Assembly: GCF_044704955.1 (NCBI RefSeq) | Contig: NC_091988.1 | Location: forward strand, 191,890,001 to 191,954,000 | Direction of reading: 5' to 3' | DNA length: 64,000 nt | From: Pristiophorus japonicus | Lineage: Eukaryota | In this document: positions 651-62,455 of the stretch, piece after piece | Layout: each line of letters opens with the position of its first letter | Position numbering within the stretch: the stretch's first letter is position 1 | Position numbers and translations under genes: made by a program | The notes under the pieces: model-generated | What the model was told of the DNA's origin: nothing | The model's database searches: none | Seen by the model: only the letters and a program-made list of their open reading frames with translations

Positions 651-1185
651 AGTTATGTCGCTGTGCTACAGCAAGCCTGCATTTGAGAAGGGAGGGCTGA
701 ATAGTACAGGGCTGCAGCCATTTACTACTCCTGATTACATTCAACCTCCTTGTTAACATGGCACGATTGAGTTTGAATTTTCCACGCAGTGCGGCCCATT
801 AAATTGTAGACCTATAAAGGATGCCTGAGTACAGAACTATTTATAGGATGTAAGGTGCGTTAAAAAAAAGACTCTTTCGGAACTGAGTACAGAACTTGGC
901 TGCTGCTACTGCCAATTCAGGAGCACTTGTGTATTTCGCCAGTGACCCATGACTTACAATTTCACATTTTACAAATAACACTGTACATACCGATGCAGGG
1001 GCCTTAGATTCCCAACTATTGCTCCCTGCGAGCAGCCAGCCGAGCCAGGAGTGCTCAATTGGGGAACTCAGCCTTTACCTTTGCTCTTTTGAGGAGCCAC
1101 TCAATCAGTTTTGGTGTCAGATTTCCAATATTGTGAATAATGGTCGAACATTTTTAATTCCTAACGTGGATCTCATCGTACAAAG

Positions 1186-2100
1186 CTAGGTGGGAATGTA
1201 AGTCACGAGGAGGATGCAAGGAGGCTTCAAGGGGATATACACAGGCAAAGTGAGTGGGCAAGAACATGGCAAATGGAATATAATGTGGAGAAATGTGAAG
1301 TTACCCACTTTGGTAGGAAAAATAGAAAAGCAGAGTATTTTTTGAATGGTGAGAGATTGGGAAATGTTTGTGTTCATAGGGACCTGGATGTCCCTGTACA
1401 TGAATCACTGAAAGTTAACATGCAGGTACAGCAAGCAATTAAGAAAGCAAATGTTAGCCTTGATTACAAGAGGATTTGAATATAAGAGTAAAGATGTCTT
1501 ACTACAATTTTATAGGGCACTGGTGAGAACACACCTGGAATATTGTGCACAGTTTTAGTCTCCTTATCTAAGGAAGGATATACTTGCCATAGAGGGAGTG
1601 CAATAAAGGTTCACCAGACTGATTCCTCGGATGGGGGGATTGTCCTATGAGGAGAGATTGAGTAGACTAGGCCTATTTTCTCTAGAGTTTAGAAGAATAA
1701 GAGGTGATCTCATTGAAGCATACAAAATTCTTACAGGGTTTAACAGGGTAGTTGCAGGGAGGATGTTTCCCCTGGCTGGGGAGTCTAGAACACGGGGTCA
1801 CAGTCTCAGAATAAGGTGTCGGCCATTTAGGACTGAAATGAGGAGAAATTTCTTCATTCAGAGGGTGGCGAATCTTTGGAATTCTCTACCCCAGAGGGCT
1901 GTGGAAGCTCAGTCGTTGAGTATATTCAAGACAGAGATCGATAGATTTTTGGATATTAAGGGAATCAAAGGATATGGGGACAGTGCAGGCAAGTGGAGTT
2001 GAGGTAGAGGATCAGCCATTGATCTCATTGAATGACGGAGCAGGCTCGAGGGGCCGAATGGCTGACTCCTGCTCCTAATTCTTATCTTCCGTATGTTATG
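1186..2100 (+). mobile_element. CR1 LINE, 5'-truncated (ORF2 C-terminus + 3'UTR)
   Basis: Disrupted ORFs MEYNVEKCEVTHFG and YEERLSRLGLFSLEFRRIRGDLIE...RNFFIQRVANLWNSLP; CR1 3'UTR and TATGTT tail. Confidence 0.95.
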
Positions 2101-14429: not shown

Positions 14430-17179
14430 TAGAAACATAGAAACATAGAAAATAGGTGCAGGAGTAGGCCATTCGGCCCTTCTAGCCTGCACCGCCATTC
14501 AATGAGTTCATGGCTGAACATGCAATTTCAGTACCCCATTCCTGCTTTCACGCCATACCCCTTGATCCCCCTAGTAGTAAGGACTTCATCGAACTCCTTT
14601 TTGAATATATTTAGTGAATTGGCCTCAACAACTTTCTGTGGTAGAGAATTCCACAGGTTCACCACGCTCTGGGTGAAGAAGTTTCTCCTCATCTCGGTCC
14701 TAAATGGCTTACCCCTTATGCTTACACTGTGACCCCTGGTTCTGGACTTCCCCAACATTGGGAACATTCTTCCTGCATCTAACCTGTCTAAACCCATCAG
14801 AATTTTAAACGTTTCTATGAGGTCCCCTCTCATTCTTCTGAACTCCAGTGAATACAAGCCCAGTTGATCCAGTCTTTCTTGATATGTCAGTTCCGCCATC
14901 CCGTGAATCAGTCTGGTGAACCTTCGCTGCACTCCCTCAATAGCAAGAATGTCCTTCCTCAGGTTAGGAGACCAAAACTGTACACAATACTCCAGGTGTG
15001 GCCTCACCAAGGCCCTGTACAACTGTAGAAATACCTCCCTGCCCCTGTACTCAAATCCCGTCGCTATGAAGGCCAACATGCCATTTGCTTTCTTAACCGC
15101 CTGCTGTACCTGCATGCCAACCTTCAATGACTGATGTACCATGACACCCAGGTCTCGTTGCACCTCCCCTTTTCCTAATCTGTCACCATTCAGATAATAG
15201 TCTGTCTCTCTGTTTTTACCACCAAAGTGGATAACCTCACATTTATCCACATTATACTTCATCTGCCATGCATTTGCCCACTCACCGAACCTATCCAAGT
15301 CGCTCTGCAGCCTCATAGCATCCTCCTCGCAGCTCACACTGCCACCCAACTTAGTGTCATCCGCAAATTTGGAGATACTACATTTAATCCCCTCGTCTAA
15401 ATCATTAATGTACAGTGTAAACAGCTGGGGCCCCAGCACAGAACCTTGCGGTACCCCACTAGTCACTGCCTGCCATTCTGAAAAGTCCCCATTTACTCCT
15501 ACTCTTTGCTTCCTGTCTGCCAACCAGTTCTCAATCCATGTCAGCACACTACCCCCAATCCCATGTGCTTTAACTTTGCACATTAATCTCTTGTGTGGGA
15601 CCTTGTCGAAAGCCTTCTGAAAGTCCAAATATACCACATCAACTGGTTCTCCCTTGTCCACCCTACTGGAAACATCCTCAAAAAATTCCAGAAGATTTGT
15701 CAAGCATGATTTCCCTTTCACAAATCCATGCTGACTTGGACCTATCATGTCATCTCTTTCCAAATGCACTGCTATGACATCCTTAATAATTGATTCCATC
15801 ATTTTACCCACTACCGATGTCAGGCTGACCGGTCTATAATTCCCTGTTTTCTCTCTCCCTCCTTTTTTAAAAAGTGGGATTACATTGGCTACCCTCCACT
15901 CGATAAGAACTGATCCAGAGTCAATGTAATGTTGGAAAATGACTGTCAATGCATCCGCTATTTCCAAGGCCACCTCCTTAATACTCTGGGATGCAGTCCA
16001 TCAGGCCCTGGGGATTTATCGGCCTTCAATCCCATCAATTTCCCCAACACAATTTCCCGACTAATATTGATTTGCCTCAGCTCCTCCTCCTTACTAGACA
16101 CTCTGACCCCTTTTATATCAGGAAGGTTGTTTGTGTCCTCCTTAATGAATACCGAACCAAAGTACTTGTTCAATTGGTCCGCCATTTCTTTGTTCCCCGT
16201 TATGACTTCCCCTGATTCTGACTGCAGGGGACCTACGTTTGTCTTTACTAACCTTTTTCTCTTTACCTATCTATAGAAACTTTTGCAATCCGTCTTAATG
16301 TTCCCTGCAAGCTTCTTCTCGTACTCCATTTTCCCTGCCCTAATCAAACCCTTTGTCCTCCTCTGCTGAGTTCTAAATTTCTCCCAGTCCCCGGGTTCAC
16401 TGCTATTTCTGGCCAATTTGTATGCCACTTCCTTGGCTTTAATACAATCCCTGATGTCCCTTGATAGCCACGGTTGAGCCACCTTCCCTTTTTTATTTTT
16501 ACGCCAGACAGGAATGTACAATTGTTGTAGTTCATCCATGCGGTCTCTAAATGTCTGCCATTGCCCATCCAAATCAACCCCTTAAGTATCATTCGCTAAT
16601 CTATCCTAGTCAATTCACGCCTCATACCTTCAAAGTTACCCTTCTTTAAGTTCTGGACCATGGTCTCTGAATTAACTGTTTCATTCTCCATCCTAATGCA
16701 GAATTCCACCATATTATGGTCACTCTTCCCCAAGGGGCCTCGCACAACGAGATTGCTAATTAATCCCCTCTCATTACACCACACCCAGTCTAAGATGGCC
16801 TCCCTCCTAGTTGGTTCCTCGACATATTGGTCTAGAAAACCATCCCTTATGCACTCCAGGAAATCCTCCTCCACCGTATTGCTTCCAGTTTGGTTAGCCC
16901 AATCTATGTGCATATTAAAGTCACCCATTATAACTGCTGCACCCTTATTGCATGCACCCCTAATTTCCTGTTTGATGCCCTCCCCAACATCACTACTACT
17001 GTTTGGAGGTCTGTACACAACTCCCACTAACGTTGTTTGCCCTTTGGTGTTCTGTAGCTCTACCCATATAGATTCCACATCATCCAAGCTAATGTCCTTC
17101 CTAACTATTGCATTAATCTCCTCCTTAACCAGCAATGCTACCCCACCTCCTTTTCCTTTTATTCTATCCTTCCTGAATG
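14430..17179 (-). mobile_element. Young CR1 LINE (2.75 kb; APE endonuclease + RT)
   Basis: EN motifs GGGVALLVK, VYRPP, MGDFN, SDHN (16596-17204); RT ORF 14528-15973; frameshifts near 16570 and 15981 and a stop near 16267. Confidence 0.97.
14528..15973 (-). CDS. CR1 ORF2 reverse transcriptase portion (481 aa open, separated from EN by a frameshift)
   Basis: YRPVSLTS, DFQKAFDKV, GVPQGSVLGP and FADDTK motifs. Confidence 0.85.
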   Translation of the reverse strand: MALEIADALTVIFQHYIDSGSVLIEWRVANVIPLFKKGGREKTGNYRPVSLTSVVGKMMESIIKDVIAVHLERDDMIGPSQHGFVKGKSCLTNLLEFFEDVSSRVDKGEPVDVVYLDFQKAFDKVPHKRLMCKVKAHGIGGSVLTWIENWLADRKQRVGVNGDFSEWQAVTSGVPQGSVLGPQLFTLYINDLDEGIKCSISKFADDTKLGGSVSCEEDAMRLQSDLDRFGEWANAWQMKYNVDKCEVIHFGGKNRETDYYLNGDRLGKGEVQRDLGVMVHQSLKVGMQVQQAVKKANGMLAFIATGFEYRGREVFLQLYRALVRPHLEYCVQFWSPNLRKDILAIEGVQRRFTRLIHGMAELTYQERLDQLGLYSLEFRRMRGDLIETFKILMGLDRLDAGRMFPMLGKSRTRGHSVSIRGKPFRTEMRRNFFTQSVVNLWNSLPQKVVEANSLNIFKKEFDEVLTTRGIKGYGVKAGMGY

Positions 17180-33203: not shown

Positions 33204-33965
33204 CCATTGTTTAGGATGACAAGAGGAAGGGAAAGAAGTTCACAGGCCCCCTCTTGACTTCATATAAACACAATTTGAATCAAGAAATCTTTAAAATTCA
33301 CTGTCTACAATTATGGTAACACATCGCCTTTTATTGGACAGGCACTGAGTTCTGTGAATCTAGCCAGACTGACTGGAACAACCCAAGTGCTGTTAGTCTT
33401 TCCTAATCAGCTGAGGGGGGGAGTTCCTGCAAGAGGACACATCAACCCCGTAAAGATTTATAACACTTTGAAATATAAATAAGAAAGTGGATACTGGAGC
33501 GTTCCAACCACTGAAGATACTTTACTGACAGATTCTTGTCCAAGGTGTCCTTATGCAGAATTTGAAATGATTAGTCAGAGCTTTGCACAATAAATACACC
33601 AATACTCGGTAACCATGAAGATGGGCATCTCTACTGTAATGTTTAATAAGATTGCACATAACCAAATACCTGGGACAAGCTTGTAATATAAACCAATGGT
33701 TGTTGTAGAATAGTAAAACTGAGACTGAAGCTTGCGCACTTTATAGAACATTATCCGAGCCCTAAATCTGCATCGCTATCTTGAAACCTTTCCCAAATAA
33801 TTATTATTTTATGCTGTGTACAAAACATGATGGATATGTGGGGGGAAAAAAAGTTAAAATGCAAATGAAAGACTGATCTCATGGTTCCAATAACATTGTC
33901 GAGTAATCTGTATGATCTGATTTGTGATGTCACTGAGAGGGAATTACAGTCATTCGTGATATAAG

Positions 33966-35850
33966 CATAGAAACATAGAAAATAGGTGCAGGAGTAAGCC
34001 ATTTGGGCCTTCGAGCCTGCACCGCCATTCAATGAGTTCATGGCTGAACATGCAACTTCAGTACCCCATTCCTGCTTTCTCGCCATACCCCTTGATCCCC
34101 CTAGTAGTAAGGACTACATCTAGCTCCTTTTTGAATATATTTAGTGAATTGGCCTCTTCAAATTTCTGTGGTCGAGAATTCCACAGATTCACCACTCTCT
34201 GGGTGAAGAAGTTTCTCCTCATCTCGGTCCTAAATGGCTTACCCCTTATCCTTACACTGTGACCCCCTGGTTCTGGACTTCCCCAACATTGGGAACATTC
34301 TTCCTGAATCTGACCTGTCTAAACCCGTCAGAAATTTAAACGTTTCTATAAGATCCCCTCTCATTCTTCTGAACTCCAGTGAATACAAGCCCAGTTGATC
34401 CAGTCTTTCTTGATATGTCAGTTCCGCCATCCCGGGAATCAGTCTGGTGAACCTTCGCTGCACTCCCTCAGTAGCAAGAATGTCCTTCCTCAAGTTAGGA
34501 GACAAAAACTGTACACAATACTGCAGGTGTGGCCTCACCAAGGCCCTGTACAACTGTAATAACACCTCCATGCCCCGTACTCAAATCCCCTCGCTATGAA
34601 GGCCAACATGCCATTTGCTTTCTTAACCGCCTGCTGTACCTACATGCCAACCTTCAATGAATGATGTACCATGACACCCAGCTCTCGTTGCACCTCCCCT
34701 TTTCCTAATCTGTCACCATTCAGATAATAGTCTGTCTCTCTGTTTTTACCACCAAAGTGGATAACCTCACCACATTATACTTCATCTGCCATGCATTTGC
34801 CCACTCACCTAACCTATCCAAGTCACTCTGCAGCCTCATAGCATCCTCCTCGCAGCTCACACTGCCACCCAACTTAGTGTCATTCGCAAATTTGGAGATA
34901 CTACATTTAATCCCCTCGCCTAAATCATTAATGTACAATGTAAACAGCTGGGGCCCCAGCACAGAACCTTGCGGTACCCCACTAGTCACTGCCTGCCATT
35001 CTGAAAAGTACCCATTTACTCCTACTCTTTGCTTCCTGTCTGCCAACCAGTTCTCAATCCACGTCAGCACACTAACCCCAATCCCATGTGCTTTAACTTC
35101 GCACATTAATCTCTTGTGTGGGACCTTGTCGAAAGCCTTCTGAAAATCCAAATACACCACATCAACTGGTTCTCCCTTGTCCACTCTACTGGAAACATCC
35201 TCAAAAAATTCCAGAAGATTTGTCAAGCATGATTTCCCTTTCACAAATCCATACTGACTTGGACCTATCATGTCACCTCTTTCCAAATGCACTGCTATGA
35301 CATCCTTAATAATTGATTCCATCATTTTACCCACTACCGATGTCAGGCTGACCGGTCTATAATTCCCTGTTTTCTCTCTCCCTCCTTTTTTAAAAAGTGG
35401 GGTTACATTGGCTACCCTCCACTCCATAGGAACTGATCCAGAGTCTATGGAATGTTGGAAAATGACTGTCAATGCATCCGCTATTTTCAAGGCCACCTCC
35501 TTAAGTACTCTGGGATGCAGTCCATCAGGCCCTGGGGATTTATCGGCCTTCAATCCCATCAATCTCCCCAACACAATTTCCCGACTAATAAGGATTTCCC
35601 TCAGTTCCTCCTCCTTACTAGACCCTCTGACCCCTTTTATATCCGGAAGGTTGTTTGTGTCCTCCTTAATGAATACCGAACCAAAGTACTTGTTCAATTG
35701 GTCTGCCATTTCTTTGTTCCCAGTTATGACTTCCCCTGATTCTGACTGCAGGGGACCTACGTTTGTCTTTACTAACCTTTTTCTCTTTACATACCTATAG
35801 AAACTTTTGCAGTCCGTTTTAATGTTCCCTGCAGTCTTCCTCTCGTACTC
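33966..35850 (-). mobile_element. CR1 LINE, 5'-truncated, same subfamily as 14430 and 37895
   Basis: ORF 34720-35985 contains the tether and RT (catalytic FADD mutated to FAND); several indels. Confidence 0.96.
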
Positions 35851-37800: not shown

Positions 37801-37894
37801 TGGTGTGCATAATGTATATAGTGATACAGCATGTGGTAGATGTTCATTTAGGAATATCTGGCTGATGCAGATTGCATCTTTCAGGCTAGTTCAT

Positions 37895-40800
37895 AGAAAC
37901 ATAGAAACATAGAAAATAGGTGCAGGAGCAGGTCATTCAGCCCTTCTAGCCTGCACCGCCATTCAATGAGTTCATGGCTGAACATGAAACTTCAGTACCC
38001 CATTCCTGCTTTCTCGCCATAACCCTTGATCCCCCTAGTAGTAAGGACTACATCTAACTCCCTTTTGAATATATTTAGTGAATTGGCCTCAACTACTTTC
38101 TGTGGTAGAGAATTCCACAGGTTCACCACTCTCTGGGTGAAGAAGTTTCTCCTCATCTCGGTCCTAAGTGGCTTACCCCTTATCCTCAGACTGTGACCCC
38201 TGGTTCTGGACTTCCCCAACATTGGGAACATTCTTCCTGCATCTAAACTGTCTAAACCCGTCAGAATTTTAAACGTTTCTATGAGGTCCCCTCTCATTCT
38301 TCTGAACTCCAGTGAATACAAGCCCAGTTGATCCAGTCTTTCTTGATAGGTCAGTCCCGCCATCCCGGGAATCAGTCTGGTGAACCTTCGCTGCACTCCC
38401 TCAATAGCAAGAATGTCCTTCCTCAAGTTAGGAGACCAAAACTGTACACAATACTCCAGGTGTGGCCTCACCAAGGCCCTGTACAACTGTAGCAACACCT
38501 CCCTGCCCCTGTATTCAAATCCCCTCGCTATGAAGGCCAACATGCCATTTGCTTTCTTAACTGCCTGCTGTACCTGCATGCTAACCTTCAATGACTGATG
38601 TACCATGACACCCAGGTCTCGTTGCACCTTCCCTTTTCCTAATCTGTCACCATTCAGATAATAGTCTGTCTCTCTGTTTTTACCACCAAAGTGGATAACC
38701 TCACATTTATCCACATTATACTTCATCTGCCATGCATTTGCCCACTCACCTAACCTATCCAAGTCACTCTGCAGCCTAATAGCATCCTCCTCGCAGCTCA
38801 CACTGCCACCCAACTTAGTGTCATCCGCAAATTTGGAGATACTGCATTTAATCCCCTCGTCTAAATCATTAATGTACAATGTAAACAGCTGGGGCCCCAG
38901 CACAGAACCTTGCGGCACCCCACTAGTCACTGCCTGCCATTCTGAAAAGTACCCGTTTACTCCTACTCTTTGCTTCCTGTCTGCCAACCAGTTCTCAATC
39001 CACGTCAGCACACTACCCCCAATCCCATGTGCTTTAACTTTGCACATTAATCTCTTGTGTGGGACCTTGTCGAAAGCCTTCTGAAAGTCCAAATATACCA
39101 CATCAACTGGTTCTCCTTTGTCCACTTTACTGGAAACATCCTCAAAAAATTCCAGAAGATTTGTCAAGCATGATTTCCCTTTCACAAATCCATGCTGACT
39201 TGGACCTATCATGTCACCATTTTCCAGATGCACTGCTATGACATCCTTAATAATTGATTCCATCATTTTACCCACTACTGAGGTCAGGCTGACCGGTCTA
39301 TAATTTCCTGTTTTCTCTCTCCCTCCTTTTTTAAAAAGTGGGGTTACATTGGCTACCCTTCACTCCATAGGAACTGATCCAGAGTCAATGGAATGTTGGA
39401 AAATGACTGTCAATGCATCCGCTATTTCCAAGACCATCTCCTAAGTACTCTGGGATGCAGTCCATCAGGCCCTGGGGATTTATCGGCCTTCAATCCCATC
39501 AATTTCCCCAACACAATTTCCCGACTAATAAGGATTTCCTTCAGTTCCCCCTCCTTACTAGACCCTCTAACCCCTTTTATATCCGGAAGGTTGTTTGTAT
39601 CCTCCTTAGTGAATACCGAACCAAAGTACTTGTTCAATTGGTCTGCCATTTCTTTGTTCCCCGTTATGACTTCCCCTGATTCTGACTGCAGGGAACCTAC
39701 GTTTGTCTTTACTAACCTTTTTCTCTTTATATACCTATAGAAACTTTTGCAATCCACCTTAATGTTCCCTGCAAGCTTCTTCTCGTACTCCATTTTCCCT
39801 GCCCTAATCAAACCCTTTGTCCTCCTCTGCTGAGTTCTAAATTTCTCCCAGTCCCCAGGTTCGCTGCTATTTCTGGCCAATTTGTATGCCACTTCCTTGG
39901 CTTTAATACTATCCCTGATTTCCCTAGATAGCCACGGTTGAGCCACCTTCCATTTTTTATTTTTACGCCAGACAGGAATGTACAATTGTTGTAATTCATC
40001 CATGCGGTCTCTAAATGTCTGCCATTGCCCATCCACAGTCAACCCCCTAAGTATCATTCGCCAATCTATCCTAGCCAATTCACGCCTCATACCTTCAAAG
40101 TTACCCTTCTTTAAGTTCTGGACCATGGTCTCTGAATTTACTGTTTCATTCTCCATCCTAATGCAAAATTCCACCATATTATGGTCACTCTTCCCCAAGG
40201 GGCCTCGCACAATGAGATTGCTAATTAATCCCCTCTCATTACACAACACCCAGTCTAAGATGGCCTCCCCCCTAGTTGGTTCCTCAACATATTGGTCTAG
40301 AAAACCATCCCTTATGCACTCCAGGAAATCCTCCTCCACCGTATTGCTTCCAGTTTGGCTAGCCCAATCTATGTGCATATTAAAGTCACCCATTATAACT
40401 GCTACACCTTTATTGCATGCACCCCTAATTTCCTGTTTGATGCCCTCCCCAACATCCCTAGTACTGTTTGGAGGTCTGTACACAACTCCTACTAACATTT
40501 TTTGCCCTTTGGTGTTCTGCAGCTCTACCCATATAGATTCCACATCATCCAAGCTAATGTCTTTCCTAACTATTGCATTAATCTCCTCTTTAACCAACAA
40601 TGCTACCCCACCTCCTTTTCCTTTTATTCTATCCTTCCTGAATGTTGAATACCCCTGAATGTTGAGTTCCCAGCCCTGATCATCCTGGAGCCACGTCTCC
40701 GTAATCCCAATCACATCATATTTATTAACATCTATTTGCACAATTAATTCATCCACCTTATTGCGGATACTCCTTGCATTAAGACACAAAGCCTTCAGGC

Positions 40801-47310: not shown

Positions 47311-48957
47311 TAGGCTAGAAATTCGATATCGCCCACTTGTGATGCCGCCGGGGGGACTAACTTTAGCGCCGGGCGATGTCTACCGCTTCAAAGTGGGATA
47401 TTCACTTGTATCGCCCCAAGAAGAGAGTGGAGCGCTAAGGGAACCTTTCCCCACTCCTCCTCGGGCGCTAACGGAGCGATAGCGCAGGAGGCCGACTCAA
47501 TCTTTTGGCGCTAGGATGCCGGCAATCCTAGCGCCTGAAGATGAAAAAGAAATCCTGGTGAAAATTTCAATAAACTTCACCCACACTTCCCCACAACTGC
47601 AACAAATAAATAGAAGTTGAAAAACTGGAATATCAGCACTTACCTTGCACGATATTGCCCCGGGATCGTCGCTGGACCGAGTGCTTTCCCACCAACAACA
47701 ACCACAGCAGTAATGAAAGGCTGCACCCATCGCTCCTCCACTTTATTCTAAAACTGCCCACTGCGCCAGGTCTTGGTGACTGCATCCCTGCCTGCAGGCG
47801 GTGGCGCAGTGTTTCTCGGGTTGGTACCAAGCTTATTCTTTCGATCATCTCGGGTAATGTGCACTTCTTGATGGGGGGGCATGGGCAGGTGGTAATGTGG
47901 AAGGCCCGGCTTGGGTCTCTTCAGAGGCTGGTCTGGAGATTGTAGTGGCAGTTGATTCCATCAATGGCCGCAGGGTATGGACGTGTTCCCTTATTACAGC
48001 AGCTAACTCTGACATCCCCTCCCTCATGTGCCCCGACAGCATCTCAAATACCTGTAACATTCTCTCTCTCATGTTCACCGACAGTGTATCAAATACCTGC
48101 AACATTCCCTCCTTCATGTTCAACGACATTGTATCAGCTGCCTGAGACATTCCCTCCCTCATGTTCCTGGACAGTGTTCCCATTTCTCGTGAGAGTGTTG
48201 TTACTTCTCCCGACAGTCCCGATACCTCATCACCCACCCCGCTGATGGTGTCCAGGAGTGATCGTGTAAGGTCAATGCTCTCCCCACTCATTGCCATCGT
48301 CCGAACCACATCTGTTACATCTTGCATCTCAGGAGAGTGCTGTCGATATCTCCTTCCCCTCCTCACCCTGGGTGTAGCTCGCTGCATCCTACCGGGACCC
48401 ACAGCCTCGGATGTTGGGGCCCTGGGTGTGCCTCGCTGCAATCCCACTGGGACCCGCAGCCTCGGACTGTGCAGAACCATGGAATGTCCCAACACTTGTA
48501 CCACTCAGGAAAGGGCCGGGCACCTCAATGGGCGGCACCTGCACCTCCTCCAGAGTGAGTACAACAGTGGGGGCTTCATCCTCCGCCTCCCCCTGCCCCT
48601 CTCCCTCACCCCTATGCTCTTGGTCTGGAAGGTGGGATTGGAAGATGTTCTCCTCTTCAGGCTCGTCCGCGTCTGAATATCCTTCTGCATCGGCTTCACC
48701 CTCGTCAGGGTTGGCCTCAAGTTCTGCAAAATATAACAGAACAGACAAATGGTTAACAGCAGAGGAGGGGGCAGGGTGGGTGGTATGAGTAGGCTCACAC
48801 AGCGCAGGCAGCAGGCTCATTTGAAGGACCACGATGAATGATAGCACATTGCATCAATCGAAGCGTAGCTGATGGAGACATCCCCATGAACCGAAACATG
48901 ACTAGCCCGTGCATTTCACATTTAGCAAAGCCAGACTGTGGAATTTGCAGGACTTAC

Positions 48958-49120: not shown

Positions 49121-49233
49121 CTGCAAAGATAACAATATAACTTTTTAGCGAGGGTGTCTTTCTGCTGGGTGGGAGATACAGATGGTCACATTTACAATTG
49201 CAATTCCAGTGAATAAATGAAAATATTACTTAC

Positions 49234-49470
49234 ACTAACTACTTGACCAAGGTCCTGCCACTTCTTTTTACACTGGCCTCCAGACCTCGGGATGGTCACC
49301 ATTGCACAGTAATCTTCTGCAAGTTGGTTCCAGCGTTTCTTCATTTCTTTGGGTGAAACTTTAACGTGACCTCTGCTGGTGTCCAGCTTGTGCCAACTAG
49401 CCTCAGTTACAGTAACTAGTGCCTCCACTTCATCCTGTGAGAAATTCTTGGTCCTTGAGCCGCGTTGCAT
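49234..49470 (-). CDS. Exon 1: Myb/SANT-like trihelix domain
   Basis: MQRGSRTKNFSQDEVEALV...KKRWNQLAEDY...RSGGQCKKKWQDL; donor GTAAGT. Confidence 0.8.
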
Positions 49471-49524
49471 ATTGCAGCTTGGATTTTTTTTCCACTGAGA
49501 ATTAAAGTTCTCACACACAACTGG

Positions 49525-49617
49525 CTCTTTAAAGATGGCCGAATGCAGATTGGAGGTATACTGGGCACGCGTGCCCATAGCAGTCACGTAAAAAGGACTT
49601 TTTTTTGCGCATGCGCA
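49525..49617. promoter_or_regulatory. Putative promoter of the Myb/SANT-like gene
   Basis: NRF1-consensus palindrome TGCGCATGCGCA (49606-49617), 16-bp palindrome TGGGCACGCGTGCCCA (49562-49577) and YY1-like AAGATGGCC (~49532), all 60-150 bp upstream of the ATG. Confidence 0.4.
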
Positions 49618-50756
49618 GAAGGGGGGGGGGGCATCGTTTTTTTGGCGCAGACATTAGGCTCCACCCCAGAAGCTAGCTGCGTGGCGCCAATTTCAAAAAT
49701 TAGTATGGGTAAACTTTCGAGTTTTTTTTTGGAGTAGTTGGGCTCCCCAAAAGAACGGACGTAACTCTTGAAATCCGCCAAAAAACAGCATTGGGGAAAA
49801 CTGAGCCCCTTATTTTAGGAGATTAAATGGTAAAGGCAAAGTTCACGATAAATCAAATTGTAGAAGAAGCAGGTTGGATGGTCGGCACATTTTCTCAGCC
49901 ATTTCCTGCAATGCTAATTTCTTGGACAAAGTAAAGCAATTAAAAATGAGAGAAGGGTGAAGACAGCTGCAAAAAAATGCAGAGCTAAAATTTAGTCTCC
50001 AGGACCTAATTTTGGCCTCTTGGGCCATCAAATGAGATGGATTTCTTTCAGATAATCGTATTTTTGGGATACAGTACATGACTAATTTGAGAAATGAAAT
50101 TTGGTAAATGTAATCACATGCTTGGGAGGGACAGGTGACTTTGGACCTATAGTTTCCAAAGCTCACCATCACTTGGCCGTTTCCTCTCCTCATGTCAGGG
50201 TCTGGTTGTAGCCCAATTGACAGAGACTGATTGGCGTGATTAGTCAATAACTACGTTATCGTTGTATCATGCGACTACCAGGTGAACTAGATGGGCTGTG
50301 GTCTTTTTCTGTCTCGCATGTCCTATGTACCTATGCTGCACTGTTGCGCAAGCTGCTGCTTAAGCAGAAATGAGAGTTGGCAACTCAAACAGAAACCCTG
50401 CTTCAAACCATCAGCAGTGCATGCTGTTCAGACCTAAATATAGGTTTGTGCTGGTGAAGGGGTTAAGCAGAGTAACCTGCAAAAACACAGGAGTGCCATT
50501 TAGTCAGGACAAGAGAATAAAAGGTCACCTTGTATCATGAGAGCAAAAAGAAAATCGACTTCTACATTGAATTTATAAACACCTTTTCTCTTGTTCTCAA
50601 ATTGCTTTCAAATGCAAGCTTAAAGCTGAGTAACCCATGATAAAGGTCAATCAACTGGCCAGGACAAGATGGCCAAGGACATGGTGTATCCCTGGGGTGT
50701 CTCCAGCTCAAGTAACTCCAAAGAGGAACAGTGTGGAGGAATGGGAAGCTTCCCGA

Positions 50757-57492: not shown

Positions 57493-57755
57493 TACTAAAA
57501 GTGGGCGAATGCTTAATGTGTTTTGTGTTACATTCCACTATGTTAACAAAGACAAGAACACATTGAAAAATCTCTCTGTACCTTTTAGATTTGTTCTAGG
57601 GGATAAAAAATGCACAGCTTTGTTCTTTCATGATGATGAGACTGTCAGTGTGTGCAGTCCGATCACTAGTTTGGGGTTGCAGTGAGGAAGTTAAGCGGGA
57701 TATGTACCTGTAATGTATAAACCTGTGAGTATGCTGACAGGTTTGTAGAGCTGTT

Positions 57756-58368
57756 AAATTTCTGCAGTATGGAAGAGTCCGTGTTCCACATTTTTATTGA
57801 AAGTGCGAGATTGTAGCCCCTCTTCCAATATCCGAAGGGGTTTCACTTCAGTCCCACGCTCTTGATCTTTGGGCACCCTGTGCGGAGGGGAGCGGGCAGG
57901 TCGGAAGGCCTCCTCATAGGACTGCTCCTGGGCCTGGCCAAGAGGTCATCAGCTGGTCCAGGCAGCGGGCGGTCAAGGGGGTTGTTCAGCCCGACTGCCT
58001 GCCTCTCTTCCGCGGTTACATCCGAGCCAGGGTATCCCTGGAGATGGAGCACGCGGTGTCCACCGGTACGCTCGTGGCCGTCCGCGAGAGGTGGGCACCG
58101 GAGGGACTGGAGTGCATCATCACCCCCGGCAACCAAATTTTAATTTGATTTTATATGTTTAAAGTTTAATTTTTTTAATGTGTCGGTTTTAGTGTCCCCC
58201 CCGCCCCGACCATTTTAACCAGGGGGCACTTGTATAATTTGTGTTTTGGCGCCCTCAGAAAAAGAAAACAAAAAAACAAAATAAAACAAGGGGGCACCTG
58301 AAAAGGTTTTGGAGTGTGATCCCCCCTTTAATCAGGGGGCACTTGTTTAACGTGCACAACTAAAATAG
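57756..58368 (+). mobile_element. Tx1-clade LINE 3' fragment, copy 1
   Basis: EESVFHIFIE, LIFGHPVRRGAGRSEGLLIGLLLGLAK; 220-nt 3'UTR ending AAAATAG; flanked by TTGTAGAGCTGTT. Confidence 0.85.
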
Positions 58369-58382
58369 TTGTAGAGCTGTTG

Positions 58383-60077
58383 AAGCCTGGCCAGAGAACT
58401 GGCAGGAGCTGGAGGCCGAAGTCGCCGCTCGCCTAGGGCGCTGGACAGGACTGCTCCGAGTGCTGTCCTACAGAGGTCGAGCGACAGTCATAAACCAGCT
58501 GGTGGCCGCTATGCTGTGGTACCGGTTGGTCACTTTGACCCCGCCCCCTGTGTTTGTCGCCAAGATACAGAAGAAGCTGGTGGACTTCTTCTGGAACAAC
58601 AGGAAGCACTGGGTCTCTGCTGCGGTTTTGAGTCTCCCGCTTAGGGAGGGCGGTCAGGTGTTGGTGTGCGGCAGCACCCAGCATGCATCTTTCCGTCTGC
58701 AGACCCTGCAGAGATACCTCTACGTCGAGCCCCCTCCTAGGTGGCGTGCGCTGGCGATGTATTTCTTCCGCCAGCAGTACAGCCTCAATTATGACACACA
58801 GCTCCTGTTTGTGAGCCTGGGGGGGGCGTCAGGACCACCATGCAGGGGCTGTCTGTCTTTTACCAGAAACTCATCAGGGTCTGGAACAGAGTCACCACCA
58901 AGCGCAGCTCTCTCCCGTCTGAAGTGGCGGCTGTCCTGCAGGAGCCGCTGCTCAGGAATCCGTAACTCCATGCCGCGGTTTTAGGTGGCAGGCGGACGAG
59001 AGGGTTGTGGCTGGCGAGGTGACCAGGGTCAGGGATCTGCTCGATGGCGGAGGAGCGGGTTGGACGGCGGCAGACGAGCTGGTACGGCGCCTATCCTGGG
59101 CCGACGTCCGGCGCGCAGCCGATGCCATCGAGTCGCTAAAAACAGCTCTGGGCCCTGACTCCATTAGGTGTGTTGAGGAGGCTCAAGCACGTGGGGAGAT
59201 CCCGTCCGAACTGACCCCCGTCCGGATGGAATTCCTCAGTGGCACCAAGCCCTGAAACCTCCCTCGGGAGTCGGCGCCTCACAACTTGAGCCTCCTCGGG
59301 GAAATCTCCTCCGTGCCTTTCAGTTCTGCGCGGAGGGGATTCGTGTAAGGGCTGCTCCTGCACACTCTCCACCTTGCTATCCTCGTCTGCCGCCTGGACA
59401 CACCATGGCACACCATCTTGCCGTCCGGAGGAGGCGGGGGTCCCCAATGGAGTGTACTGTACACGGGAGTCCTCCCTCTATCTATTGGGGACTTGGCCTG
59501 GAGGGTGTTGCACGGAGCAGTCCTGTGCAATAAGTTTTTAAGTCGGTTCACGGGCTCCCAGGCCGCCTGCAATTTCTGCGGTCTGGAAGAGTCCGTGTTC
59601 CACGTTTTTATTGAGTGTGCGAGGTTGCAGCCCCTCTTGCAATATTTGATGGGGCTGCTCCTCAAATTCTGGTTGCACTTCAGTCCCATGCTCCTGATCT
59701 TTGGGCACCCTGTGCGGAGGGGAGCGGGCAGGTCGGAAGGCCTCATCGTAGGACTGCTCCTGGCATGGCCAAGGTGGCCATCAGCAGGTCCAGGCAGTGG
59801 GCGGTCGAGGGGGTCGTTCAGCCCGACTGCCTGCCTCTCTTCAGCGGTTACATCCGAGCCAGGGTGTCCCTGGAGATGGAGCACATGGTGTACACCGGTA
59901 TGCTAGTGGCCTTCTGTGAGTGGTGGGCGCCGGAGGGACTGGAGTGCATCATCACCCCCGGCAACCAAATTTTAATTTGATTTATGTTTCGGGCTAAAAG
60001 CTATATTGGTTTATTTGTCAGTTTTAGTGTCCCCTGTTAATAAGTGGGCCCTCAATTGATGGTCTCAATTAAAATGG
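58383..60077 (+). mobile_element. Tx1-clade LINE 3' fragment, copy 2 (disrupted ORF2 C-terminus)
   Basis: LSYRGRATVINQLVAAMLWY, LPLREGG, DLAWRVLHGA and CNFCGLEESVFHVFIEC (CCHC zf-RVT) of the L1/Tx1 clade; ends AAAATGG. Confidence 0.9.
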
Positions 60078-60091
60078 TTGTAGACCTGTTG

Positions 60092-60142
60092 ATTGTGCCC
60101 TTAAAAAAGGGGCACTTGATTTAAAAGTTTTACACAAAATAG
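60092..60142 (+). mobile_element. Tx1 extreme 3' end, copy 3 (51 nt)
   Basis: GTGCCC...GGGCACTTG hairpin and AAAATAG terminus as in copy 1; flanked by target duplicates. Confidence 0.7.
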
Positions 60143-62455
60143 TTGTAGAGCTGTTGAGTTGGGAGTGGCTTAGCCAGTCACGTGATGTTCACAAGACGCA
60201 ATAAAACCCTGGCCAGTTGATCCACGATGAGGCAGGTGGTTGTGAGCCTGGTGGAAGAACTGGTAATGTGCAGTGTGATGGTTAAATCTTTTGCTAATAA
60301 ACCAATTAGTTCTTAATAGAAAATGTGTTGCTACGAATACTTAAGCCAAGAACCCATAAAGCAAATACATTACAGTACCCGTCAATGCTTTAGAATTTAT
60401 CTGAGAGCTCTTCAGGGGAATTTTTAAAAACTCATTTGTTTATTTTTGGGTTTTTTTGTCTTTGAAGTTGTCGACGGATCGCTGGTCAAAACCTAAACTG
60501 TCAAAGCTACAGCCCATTGAGCGAGCCACCACTGGACTACAGACATTAAAGGCACTTTCTGCTACCTGTTTTCTGCTGAAGCCTAGCCTCTGGGCCTTGG
60601 GTTTTTTTTCCCTTCCATTTCCTGTGGTTTCTTTTCCATGAGCAGTTGTCACGATGTTTCTTTACTGCCAGACCGCGGTGCGACATCGTCAGATTCTCTG
60701 CTTCCCTTGGTTTGTTTGATAAATTGGGATCAGGGGTCACTCAGTCGGAGACTTGAGAGATTGCAGGCTCCTGACACAAACTTTATTAGTTTTTTACTGC
60801 ACATTCCATTTTTGGAGACGCACCACTTGTCCCACCGGAGAGCGACTATTGTCAGGTAACTGAGGTTTAGTAATATAACTTTTGACAGGGCTATTTTTCA
60901 CAAAAATATGCATTAATTAGCCCAGTGCAAGTGAAGGCATCACGATATAATTTCCCTCCTGTCTCGGTCACAGCCACCATCCCAATGTGGAGACGGCAGA
61001 AAATGAAACTTCCCTTCTTTCAGTCCCAGTGTGTGCAGACAATCTTCCTGTAGGGGGTTCTGCTCTCTTTTGTTCCGAGTGCTTGTCAGTTTAATTAAGT
61101 ATAAATGCATTCTTTCATTTTGTTTGCTTGCCTCATGATTATGGAAGAAAAAATGGTTCTCTCGGCGAACGTACATTTTTAATCAAGGATGTGCTGTACG
61201 GTGATTCAGTGTACCAGCCCTTCCAAGTTTTAATCCCATTCTGAGAAATTGTGGCTTCTTTTATTTTCCTCAATGAATTATTTATTGTTCTGCTTCTCCT
61301 ATTTTTAATGGAGCACTTTTAGCCACAAGTAATTTTGAATATGTCAGTATATAAGTGGATCACTGTTTGACAGTCCACTTAATGCATGCAGAAAGTAAAT
61401 GACTGGGGAAAAGAGGTTGGATTGATTAGAAAGTTAGAACCTGGTGCTTGATCATGCATGGATGCCAACTCCGACACACTGGGTTTAAAGTAATAGCAAG
61501 ACTATTAGTCTAACACAAAATGCATTAAAAGTGAAATCTATTACTTTTTCGCAGATAGGGCAAGTTAAAATGTGAGCAATGTCTTTTCTTTGTAGTCTTT
61601 TACCCAGAAGCAATGTATCATCACCAACTACATTTTAACATTTTTATTTAAGCTATTGACTTTCAGCGTTAATGTTACTTCCCCCCCCCCCACTCCCCCT
61701 GTTTCATTATACATGGACATCTTACATCATAGTCTGACTCTCAGCTTATTGACTCCACGAATTCAGTGGAACTGCCATATACGAGAGGCTCTACAGAGGG
61801 TCATTGAAGGAAGGAGTGATGGCATGAGGCGCCTGAATAGTTACATTTTCATTTTAGCATCCGAATATGCGTCCCTTGCACATTAGATTTGTATTTTTGT
61901 TTGAAGGATGCAAGAATAGGTTTTGTGATCTGCTGCACTAACCCTGTCTGTGTACACAGTAGTGCACTGGACTGGTGGAGTGCTCTTGCTTTCCTTCACC
62001 CTTTGTAGTGATGACAGCTACAACACTGGCCTCATATCTAAGAAAATGTGGGATTGAATCCAGTGAAAGTGAAGGATGGCCCCTTGTAGGTTTGAAACCG
62101 GTGCAAAGGAGAGTTGAAAGTCTTCTCCTTGTGGGTGTATGCCTAGTGTACCGAATGAGTTTCAAAAATTCAATCTGATGACTGTTATAGAGCAGGATGT
62201 TGATCACCATGGAGTAGGCAATAGCGGACATGAATCCACGGAACAAAACTGGCCCATTCATGTGACTCAGTTCAATAGGAGAAGCTCTGAAAGTGTTGAT
62301 GGATAATGGAAATACAATTAAATAAAAATGCTGCGTCCTCTTCAGAGACTGGGCCACATGGGGAGAAGAGAGGCTTCCTTCAAAGAAAGATTGCTGGGAT
62401 TATGTTTATCAAGGTATTTAACAACAGTTAACATCCAATTTGCTCTGGTTCTACT

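Follow-up and report, generated by a model that had tools for sequence, protein, structure and literature searches.

Two nested Tx1 insertions in a solo LTR

The window, a stretch of 64,000 nucleotides from Pristiophorus japonicus, contains two truncated Tx1-clade LINE copies, one behind the other at the same 13-bp site of a Gypsy solo LTR (Table 1). As the sequence-only reading of this DNA had proposed, the LTR is bounded by the target duplication GTACC; its ends are 10-bp inverted repeats at 57709 and 60374, and its first part includes a short inverted repeat directly before the insertion site. The four occurrences of the insertion motif described by that reading, together with same-orientation Tx1 3' fragments, are likewise present, the one starting at 60079 having one mismatch, and three exact 12-mers of the motif fall in the window where 0.008 would be expected. 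Insertion A comprises the end of ORF2, with its stop at 58146-58148, and a UTR of about 220 nt with hairpin modules and no poly(A), while insertion B holds the C-terminal part of ORF2 with a zf-RVT domain, a stop at 59978-59980 and a composite UTR. The two copies are 87% identical and differ at both their 5' and 3' ends.

Table 1. Features of the nested locus, in positions of the window
Feature	Position	Strand	Basis
LTR 5-bp target duplication, left copy GTACC	57704..57708	.	sequence; 5 bp is the best fit over host copies
Gypsy solo LTR, first 35 nt (about 275 nt when empty)	57709..57743	+	
13-bp Tx1 target, copy 1, last base differing	57744..57756	+	
Tx1 insertion A, 613 nt, 5'-truncated	57757..58369	+	
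13-bp target duplication separating insertions A and B	58370..58382	+	
Tx1 insertion B, 1761 nt, 5'-truncated, decayed	58383..60143	+	
Relic target motif in the insertion B UTR, inherited with the subfamily; no insertion site here	60079..60091	+	
3' tail captured from a different Tx1 copy; it now closes the subfamily B UTR	60092..60143	+	
13-bp target duplication, 3' copy	60144..60156	+	
Gypsy solo LTR remainder	60157..60374	+	similarity search of host copies
LTR 5-bp target duplication, right copy GTACC	60375..60379	.	sequence

The sequence-only reading had counted three insertions at this locus, giving the second a UTR of 97 nt and treating the last 51 nt as a third copy. However, the stretch 60035-60142, which includes the copy-2 UTR, the mismatched motif and the 51-nt piece, behaves as a single unit: all 40 scored matches are 88-100% identical, 39 of them lie away from the window locus, and nearly all span the mismatched motif. 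Among 30 loci read with this composite UTR there are many different 5' break points. Given the many loci and the varied 5' ends, copy 2 is one insertion with a UTR of about 163 nt, and the 51-nt piece belongs to a subfamily UTR repeated at 40 or more loci. The mismatched motif is an old target duplication that was captured by the UTR of subfamily B, and the composite UTR at the 39 other loci shows that read-through has been captured in a UTR.

The Gypsy host and the Tx1 family

The host is, from sequence comparisons, a multi-copy solo LTR of a Gypsy-type retrotransposon whose empty copies carry the motif; the repeated LTR, the empty motif-bearing copies and the internal region anticipated earlier were all found in the genome search. 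Searching with the LTR remainder gave 3480 first-look candidates, among which the best 39 non-self matches are 88-91% identical. Over 47 host copies a 5-bp duplication fits best (8 perfect, 21 at no more than one mismatch), with only 3 and 3 for duplications of 4 and 6 bp, and the LTR has the TG...CA ends and a duplication within the 4-6 bp characteristic of such elements.

As the host is short, high in copy number and has inverted ends, it could instead be a MITE-type DNA transposon, and a common flank was absent among the first 82 right ends and 51 left ends and behind a purine-rich pattern. A primer-site pattern with 0-2 spacer bases (815 matches, 30 loci without a common flank) missed the internal region because the real spacer between the 5' LTR and the primer-binding site is 3-4 nt, and a purine-tract pattern (31 matches, zero internal) missed it because a C interrupts the real tract three bases ahead of the LTR. 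The host end combined with the primer site gave 83 matches, nearly all of one sequence, which lead into a common internal region with protease, RT, RNase H and integrase, and a purine tract precedes the 3' LTR in 4/4 copies; the MITE reading is thereby refuted. Profile matches on two broken copies (L226 and L227) give the pol order PR-RT-RH-IN, with the protease and H2C2 matches below cut-off. From its short LTR, its primer site and the look of its gag, the host is a putative Mag-clade Gypsy element.

The inserting element is most likely a Tx1-clade LINE, as originally assigned, judging by its ORF2 domains and its closest named relative, Tx1L. ORF2 is 50% identical to the Xenopus Tx1L 149-kDa protein over 99% of its length, and the endonuclease 46%. 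In an intact sister copy (L212), PF03372 and PF00078 were found while PF13966 was below cut-off; zf-RVT is above cut-off in the window copy. The full-length element has two ORFs (ORF1 of about 697 aa, ORF2 of 1298 aa) in a unit of about 7.2 kb, intact young copies of the family are present in the genome, and near full-length copies of the LTR-type subfamily exist. The element ends in AAAA(T/G)AGT, the final T being its own, and lacks a poly(A) tail. A search of sequencing runs listed no RNA run with the sequence. Contigs of four sequencing runs were also compared with the locus. Two of them, derived from other organisms, gave very deep cover of the Tx1 ORF2 part and none of the LTR or the window UTRs, which does not show that these are absent there; no joint spanning the locus appeared.

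Tx1L of Xenopus laevis (YTX2_XENLA, P0003) likewise uses a fixed site inside another transposon, Tx1D, which the available text of PMC4494074 describes as a non-autonomous piggyBac. In contrast, the shark family targets a Gypsy LTR and then CR1 ORF2, its endonuclease hairpin loop is three residues shorter, and a co-mobilised composite was not seen for it.

Target use, arrays and target switching

Insertion produces a 13-bp target duplication, TGTAGAGCTGTTG, which rebuilds the site; this 13-mer is not TATA-like. The sequence-only reading was right that motif copies flank the elements but had included the T that precedes them; off-target copies at sites without a preceding T show that it belongs to the element and that the duplication is 13 bp. 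Among the closest relatives, 25/29 end on the LTR 13-mer, so the site is strongly preferred, and the proposal that the family targets an LTR retrotransposon holds. Of 5,315 intact sites, the first 100 were counted by hand; 70 were filled, 28 empty and 2 unclear, an occupancy of about 70% of intact copies. The expectation that most genomic copies would be flanked by the LTR motif failed: in a place-ordered sample of 93 copies of the whole family, 3' flanks were CR1a in 51, LTR in 20, CR1b in 2 and off-target in 12 (one of which, L253, has lost its end), and 8 had lost their ends. The LTR share is only 20/93, since a CR1 site serves a younger sister subfamily as its target. Heterogeneous flanks, a motif confined to the Tx1 UTR, or flanks that form no multi-copy LTR had been named as grounds for doubt; none of these holds for the LTR-targeting subfamilies. 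In the available text of PMC4494074 a family is target-specific when one target makes up more than 20% of flanks, a share exceeded by the LTR in the close relatives and by CR1a family-wide. The same text reports an LTR preference in two crocodilian Tx1 families, Tx1-8_Crp and Tx1-4_AMi. An LTR target is therefore not new for Tx1. The literature searched (without Repbase and subscription papers) listed no Tx1 family of a shark that targets an LTR or a CR1 element. To the crocodilian cases as described there, the shark family adds occupancy, arrays, leader relics and an endonuclease comparison.

High occupancy might also arise by hitch-hiking, the Gypsy element having spread LTRs that already carried Tx1. 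The site lies 35 nt from the LTR 5' end, likely in U3, and would thus be copied to both LTRs, and of 30 internal-linked or PBS-pattern loci, 16 or more have a filled LTR. However, none of four two-LTR elements carries the same insert in both LTRs, the arrangement that the sequence-only reading had suggested looking for, and of 55 truncated inserts anchored in the LTR, those whose break points nearly coincide are distinct in junction, length or sequence; hitch-hiking is very improbable. In 7 loci read, no 3' transduction with a poly(A) tail had its end within the LTR.

The site stays usable after insertion, as proposed, and its reuse builds arrays. The element start is joined directly to the 13-mer in 99 of the first 100 of 122 matches, and head-to-tail arrays of full-length 7.1-7.2 kb copies reach eight units. 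Of neighbouring truncated copies, 18/33 have a common 5' break point, versus 1.7% by chance, and neighbours of this kind differ in their 3'UTRs (32-78% identity). Since neighbours with different UTRs so often have a common 5' end, differing 3'UTRs alone do not prove fully independent insertion; in the window the copies do differ at both ends. Rare alleles are shared by neighbours in 13/36 cases in the first 100 nt and 7/71 in the last 120, against a 5% background. The upstream copy is the less diverged in 14/19 arrays (p=0.007), the window being an exception (0.051 upstream, 0.034 downstream). In one locus (L385) the 5' part is identical to its own downstream flank over 1,314 nt.

New copies would mostly join the upstream side, and the homologous copy that lies 13 bp downstream would often supply their 5' part. 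Gilbert et al. reportedly described chimeric human L1 insertions, with flank duplication, in which the DNA between is duplicated when new cDNA pairs with a homologous copy close by. These are said to be rare and were seen in cultured cells, whereas homologous joining is apparently the common route of array growth in the shark family. The common break points could also be explained by later unequal crossing-over among empty, single and multiple alleles, with targeting itself real. Recombination of a filled allele with an unfilled one would give the L385 structure, and the full-length arrays are in line with this. Unequal crossing-over must, however, account for all 18 pairs, many of only 200-700 nt and about 90% identical, and for their different UTRs and the younger upstream copy, and we consider it rather unlikely.

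The family has made two changes of target: it left the LTR for a site in one CR1 family (b), and later that site for the matching one of another (a). Trees of the C-terminal region nest CR1a within CR1b within the LTR type, and terminal branches of the three subfamily types are 0.042, 0.030 and 0.006. The leaders of both CR1-targeting subfamilies contain a worn LTR 13-mer, and that of the youngest subfamily also holds a piece seen in family-b leaders. The CR1a site has at least 35,248 exact copies in the genome, all empty as the search pattern excluded the filled form.

Protein and RNA in the choice of site

The endonucleases across the three target types are 89-93% identical, decay included, and have the same hairpin loop. 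No endonuclease column separates 17 LTR-type copies (3 of them assigned from one end only) from 18 CR1b-type copies, the best separation being 0.59. I201V and I163M change in frequency between these types, and I201 aligns with L1 I204, a DNA-facing residue according to the available text of PMC1950540. Outside the endonuclease, T827, Y1187 and K1195 are found in 20/20 LTR-type copies versus 1/15, 1/13 and 2/13 CR1b-type copies. The step to CR1a brought fixed or near-fixed endonuclease changes: S159C (17/17 versus 16/16) and the near-diagnostic C67S and A74G. The endonuclease thus appears unchanged at the first switch and altered at a few residues by the second, and a first switch without fixed endonuclease change suggests that an RNA tail may help choose the target.

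We slightly favour, with a probability of roughly 55%, joint choice of the site by the ORF2 protein and a read-through RNA tail, which would pair with the cut DNA end. Target-primed reverse transcription would begin where the bottom strand is nicked, at the left edge of the 13-mer. With a transcript starting in the upstream duplication and reading on into the downstream one, the last RNA bases would match the primer strand. A copy that landed at another site would acquire a different tail and might start a subfamily with its own address; such founding by stray copies agrees with the succession from the LTR to CR1 family b and on to CR1 family a. In R2Ol and other rDNA-specific elements, read-through RNA annealing to the target raises insertion efficiency, a precedent for tail pairing from another clade and nuclease type; the available text of PMC6530143 reports this aid to efficiency and not the setting of a new target.

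In a stronger form, the tail would by itself send the same endonuclease to the Gypsy LTR or to the CR1 coding site; a switch would then need only one off-target copy turned master, and the 5' leader would record former targets in order. We hold this only tentatively, as unlikely. For the favoured reading of protein together with tail, 11 off-target sites match their subfamily's own site at +1 to +4 in 11, 11, 10 and 7 cases; against it, no match extends beyond +4 or +5. Graded pairing over 13 nt would predict near-matches, so the tail alone fails to explain the on-target excess. The differences at T827, Y1187 and K1195, the I201V and I163M shifts and the CR1a endonuclease changes also count against the favoured reading, and copies may be mosaic or have moved in trans.

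Alternatively, ORF2p may read the whole site while the tail aids priming only, and the switches would then trace to a small number of substitutions in the scaffold of the endonuclease, the thumb or the C-terminal domain. The near-diagnostic residues of CR1b and CR1a copies and the end of off-target matching by +5 speak for this, as does the available text of PMC4494074, which names the endonuclease as the main determinant of target choice. One enzyme might even read both early sites, as the LTR and CR1b sites have CAGG at -6 to -3 and T at +1. However, the two 13-mers agree at only 5/13 bases, and one enzyme for both would be expected to mix subfamilies and sites more than the observed young-UTR ends do (61 on CR1a, 1 on LTR). 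No endonuclease residue is fixed between the LTR and CR1b types, and one CR1b copy (L421) shows, at each of eight positions checked, the state that prevails in the LTR type. Protein-only targeting is a serious contender, at clearly less than even odds.

The known target switches of site-specific LINEs separate old, diverged lineages. The R2 target changes R8 and R9 fall between deep lineages in the available text of PMC5035012, whereas the shark switches occurred among copies about 90-97% identical. The literature searched, again without Repbase and subscription papers, listed no target switching with an unchanged endonuclease. Beyond LTR targeting, the shark family shows two target switches, the first without fixed endonuclease change. 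With three targets within close copies, the roles of protein and RNA could be separated by few differences. The array data suggest that site reuse makes homology-directed 5' joining routine, which affects how insertion counts are read in any nested repeat. If the tail sets the address, APE-type LINEs would be candidates for programmable insertion tools, and this family would be a compact, natural, RNA-programmed example. Ecologically, the family parasitises other parasites: having occupied about 70% of one host site, it went on to a site with many empty copies.

The host LTR and its Tx1 insertions

The anatomy described by the sequence-only reading is present in the window: a 5-bp duplication, 10-bp inverted ends, four copies of the target motif and LINE 3' fragments on the same strand, with three exact 12-mers in 64 kb against 0.008 expected. 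Its repeats, CR1-like LINEs among them, suggest a cartilaginous fish. The host of the insertions is a Gypsy solo LTR. As proposed, it is multi-copy, with empty copies bearing the motif: a genome search with its right part gave 3,480 first-look candidates, and among the best 30 loci, the window's own included, the motif carried a Tx1 3' end in 14, was empty in 14 and was in another state in 2. Empty copies are about 275 nt long and hold the motif once. The host's target duplication fits best at 5 bp (at most one mismatch in 21 of 47 copies, against 3 and 3 for 4 bp and 6 bp). A host end followed by a primer-site pattern was matched 83 times, nearly all by one sequence, with a common internal region behind. 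Broken two-LTR copies encode protease, RT, RNase H and integrase in Gypsy order, with a purine tract in 4/4; the element is putatively Mag-like.

The LINE is a site-specific member of the Tx1 clade. An intact sister copy encodes an ORF1 of 697 aa and an ORF2 of 1298 aa with APE endonuclease and RT; this ORF2 shares 50% identity with that of Xenopus Tx1L across 99% of the length. The element ends in AAAA(T/G)AGT without poly(A) and makes a 13-bp target duplication, as do all three types described below. Its targeting of the LTR site is nearly certain. The window's ORF2 end was compared with its 29 nearest non-self relatives: 25 end at the LTR site (three of them one duplicated segment), two are off-target and two have lost the end. 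A hand count of 100 sites, the first among 5,315 intact LTR sites with an exact match, mutated targets being left out, found 70 preceded by a Tx1 end, 28 empty and 2 unclear. PMC4494074 already lists Tx1 families preferring LTR elements, Mariner, Harbinger and piggyBac hosts, and the LTR preference of two of its crocodilian families is like that of the window's Tx1.

The copy-2 UTR, mismatched motif and 51-nt piece form one unit, found also at 39 further loci in a set of 40 scored hits; its 5' break points vary, and some copies lie at off-target sites. Thus the window very probably holds two insertions and not three, the supposed 51-nt third copy being part of this unit. The two copies do not have a common break point. 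The composite UTR is direct evidence of read-through in the family: an earlier master copy would have been read through its own duplication into a short downstream fragment, the whole becoming UTR. Elsewhere, inserts of just ~11-20 nt of Tx1 end lie between two target copies (L060, L139, L244), at L244 in a short tandem run.

Hitch-hiking, for which a provirus with Tx1 in both LTRs had been suggested as a sign, was not seen in four elements with both LTRs: the 5' LTR alone was filled in three, and each LTR held a different insert in one. Among 55 inserts, those at separate loci with near-equal break points are set apart by junction, length or sequence.

Repeat features of the window and positions at other loci
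Feature	Location	Strand	Remark
Host Gypsy solo LTR	57709-60374		split by insertions
Insertion A (copy 1)	57757-58369		
Insertion B (copy 2)	58383-60143		composite UTR
Short inverted repeat in host LTR	57716-57747		immediately left of nick site
CR1-like LINE fragments	14430-17179, 33960-35850, 37894-40644		~96% mutual identity
Open frames	49195-49653, 47848-48504	-	one ends in a motif presumably Myb/SANT-like, of Harbinger transposon proteins
Empty CR1 sites	13290, 20607	+	resemble CR1a and CR1b targets
Empty CR1 sites	1404, 26780	-	resemble CR1a and CR1b targets
Head-to-tail arrays, full-length young Tx1	G000:C1:9710372-9760823; L211-L224, L261-L264		
Off-target LTR-type copies	L194, L197, around 1450-1620		both at one place in a different widespread repeat, possibly a secondary target
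Truncated young Tx1	L155, around 860-930		5' end joined to sequence presumably from the 3' part of 5S rRNA

Growth of arrays

The full-length arrays have 7.1-7.2 kb units, eight of them consecutive by spacing, many with ORF1 and ORF2 intact; they were likely active recently. In 46 adjacent pairs, some drawn from one array, both copies are truncated in 33, and their break points agree within 5 nt in 18 of these (1.7% of random pairs). The sequence-only reading took differing UTRs as evidence against tandem duplication. This stands in part: UTR identity is 32-78% in the 12 measurable pairs with a common break point, so these are not plain duplications, but the 5' break point itself is common in those 18 truncated pairs. 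Neighbours have rare alleles in common in 13/36 cases near the 5' end and 7/71 near the 3' end (background 5%). In 14/19 pairs it is the upstream copy that is less diverged (p=0.007), and in 17/21 its UTR is the longer. The clearest case of a 5' part matching the downstream neighbour is L385, a young CR1a copy (named, like CR1b, for its target): over 1,314 nt compared, its 5' part shows full identity with the DNA that directly follows its own end, and within the endonuclease region it gives way to young sequence. Template switching of new cDNA to a neighbouring copy would produce such a structure; unequal crossing-over gives the same one. LTR-type ends are also joined within another Tx1's 5' region at L365 and L389, at sites beginning TGT.

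Protein and RNA in target choice

Among 17 LTR-type, 18 CR1b and 16 CR1a endonucleases, no column separates the first two types; the best, I201V and I163M, are polymorphic in both. CR1a differs at S159C (17/17 vs 16/16) and nearly so at C67S and A74G. PMC1950540 describes an L1 hairpin loop that probes target DNA; here the loop is common to the subfamilies, with a V/R polymorphism confined to LTR-type copies. Targeting by protein only is kept alive by three residues outside the endonuclease, T827, Y1187 and K1195, found in 20/20 CR1b copies and in 1/15, 1/13 and 2/13 LTR copies, none of which has all three.

At 11 off-target sites with both duplications visible, the own-subfamily target is matched at +1 to +4 in 11, 11, 10 and 7; positions further on match no more than background. 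This argues against graded pairing across all 13 bases; it agrees with a short RNA-DNA duplex at the primer end, and equally well with a four-base nuclease preference. CAGG at -6 to -3 is common to LTR and CR1b sites, and C at -6 in 5/8 LTR-type off-target sites weakly hints at protein reading on the left side. A contribution of the RNA tail, the read-through into the downstream target duplication, is slightly favoured; that the tail decides the target is doubtful.

Three targets and the probable order of switches

Exact matches to the ORF2-end 21-mer number 29,238. In a sample of 93 among the first 100 places, drawn from one chromosome end and biased to young copies by the exact-match query, 51 were at CR1a, 20 at the LTR, 2 at CR1b and 12 off-target, with 8 ends lost. 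The expectation that most Tx1 3' flanks carry the LTR motif therefore holds for the window's closest relatives and fails family-wide. The CR1a target is an antisense site in CR1 ORF2 (35,248 empty exact sites) and the CR1b target the matching site in a second CR1 family (616 exact junctions). CR1a copies are young, intact and in full-length arrays.

A C-terminal tree (FastTree, midpoint root, moderate support, half of the CR1a copies omitted) nests CR1a within CR1b within the LTR type, with mean terminal branches of 0.006, 0.030 and 0.042, respectively; LTR and CR1b copies are intermixed in the endonuclease tree. Between copies L311 and L314 and the sister copy L212, ORF1 and 5'UTR are 83-89% identical and the endonuclease 96-97%, the former diverging far faster between subfamilies. 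One additional G, possibly copied from the RNA cap, lies just ahead of the target at the 5' junction of four full-length LTR-type copies (L311, L352, L353, L362).

A literature search without Repbase and most subscription papers found no account of serial switching with an unchanged endonuclease, of neighbour-templated arrays or of relics in leaders. In LTR-type copies nothing separates the 13-mer from the element start (99 in the first 100 of 122), CR1b-context starts have a worn LTR 13-mer behind their own site in 8/8 (nearly intact in L422), and CR1a starts have it in 28/29, preceded by a six-base piece also found in CR1b leaders. The 5' ends agree with the switch order of the C-terminal tree, and we put the probability that this Tx1 family has switched targets serially at roughly 85%.
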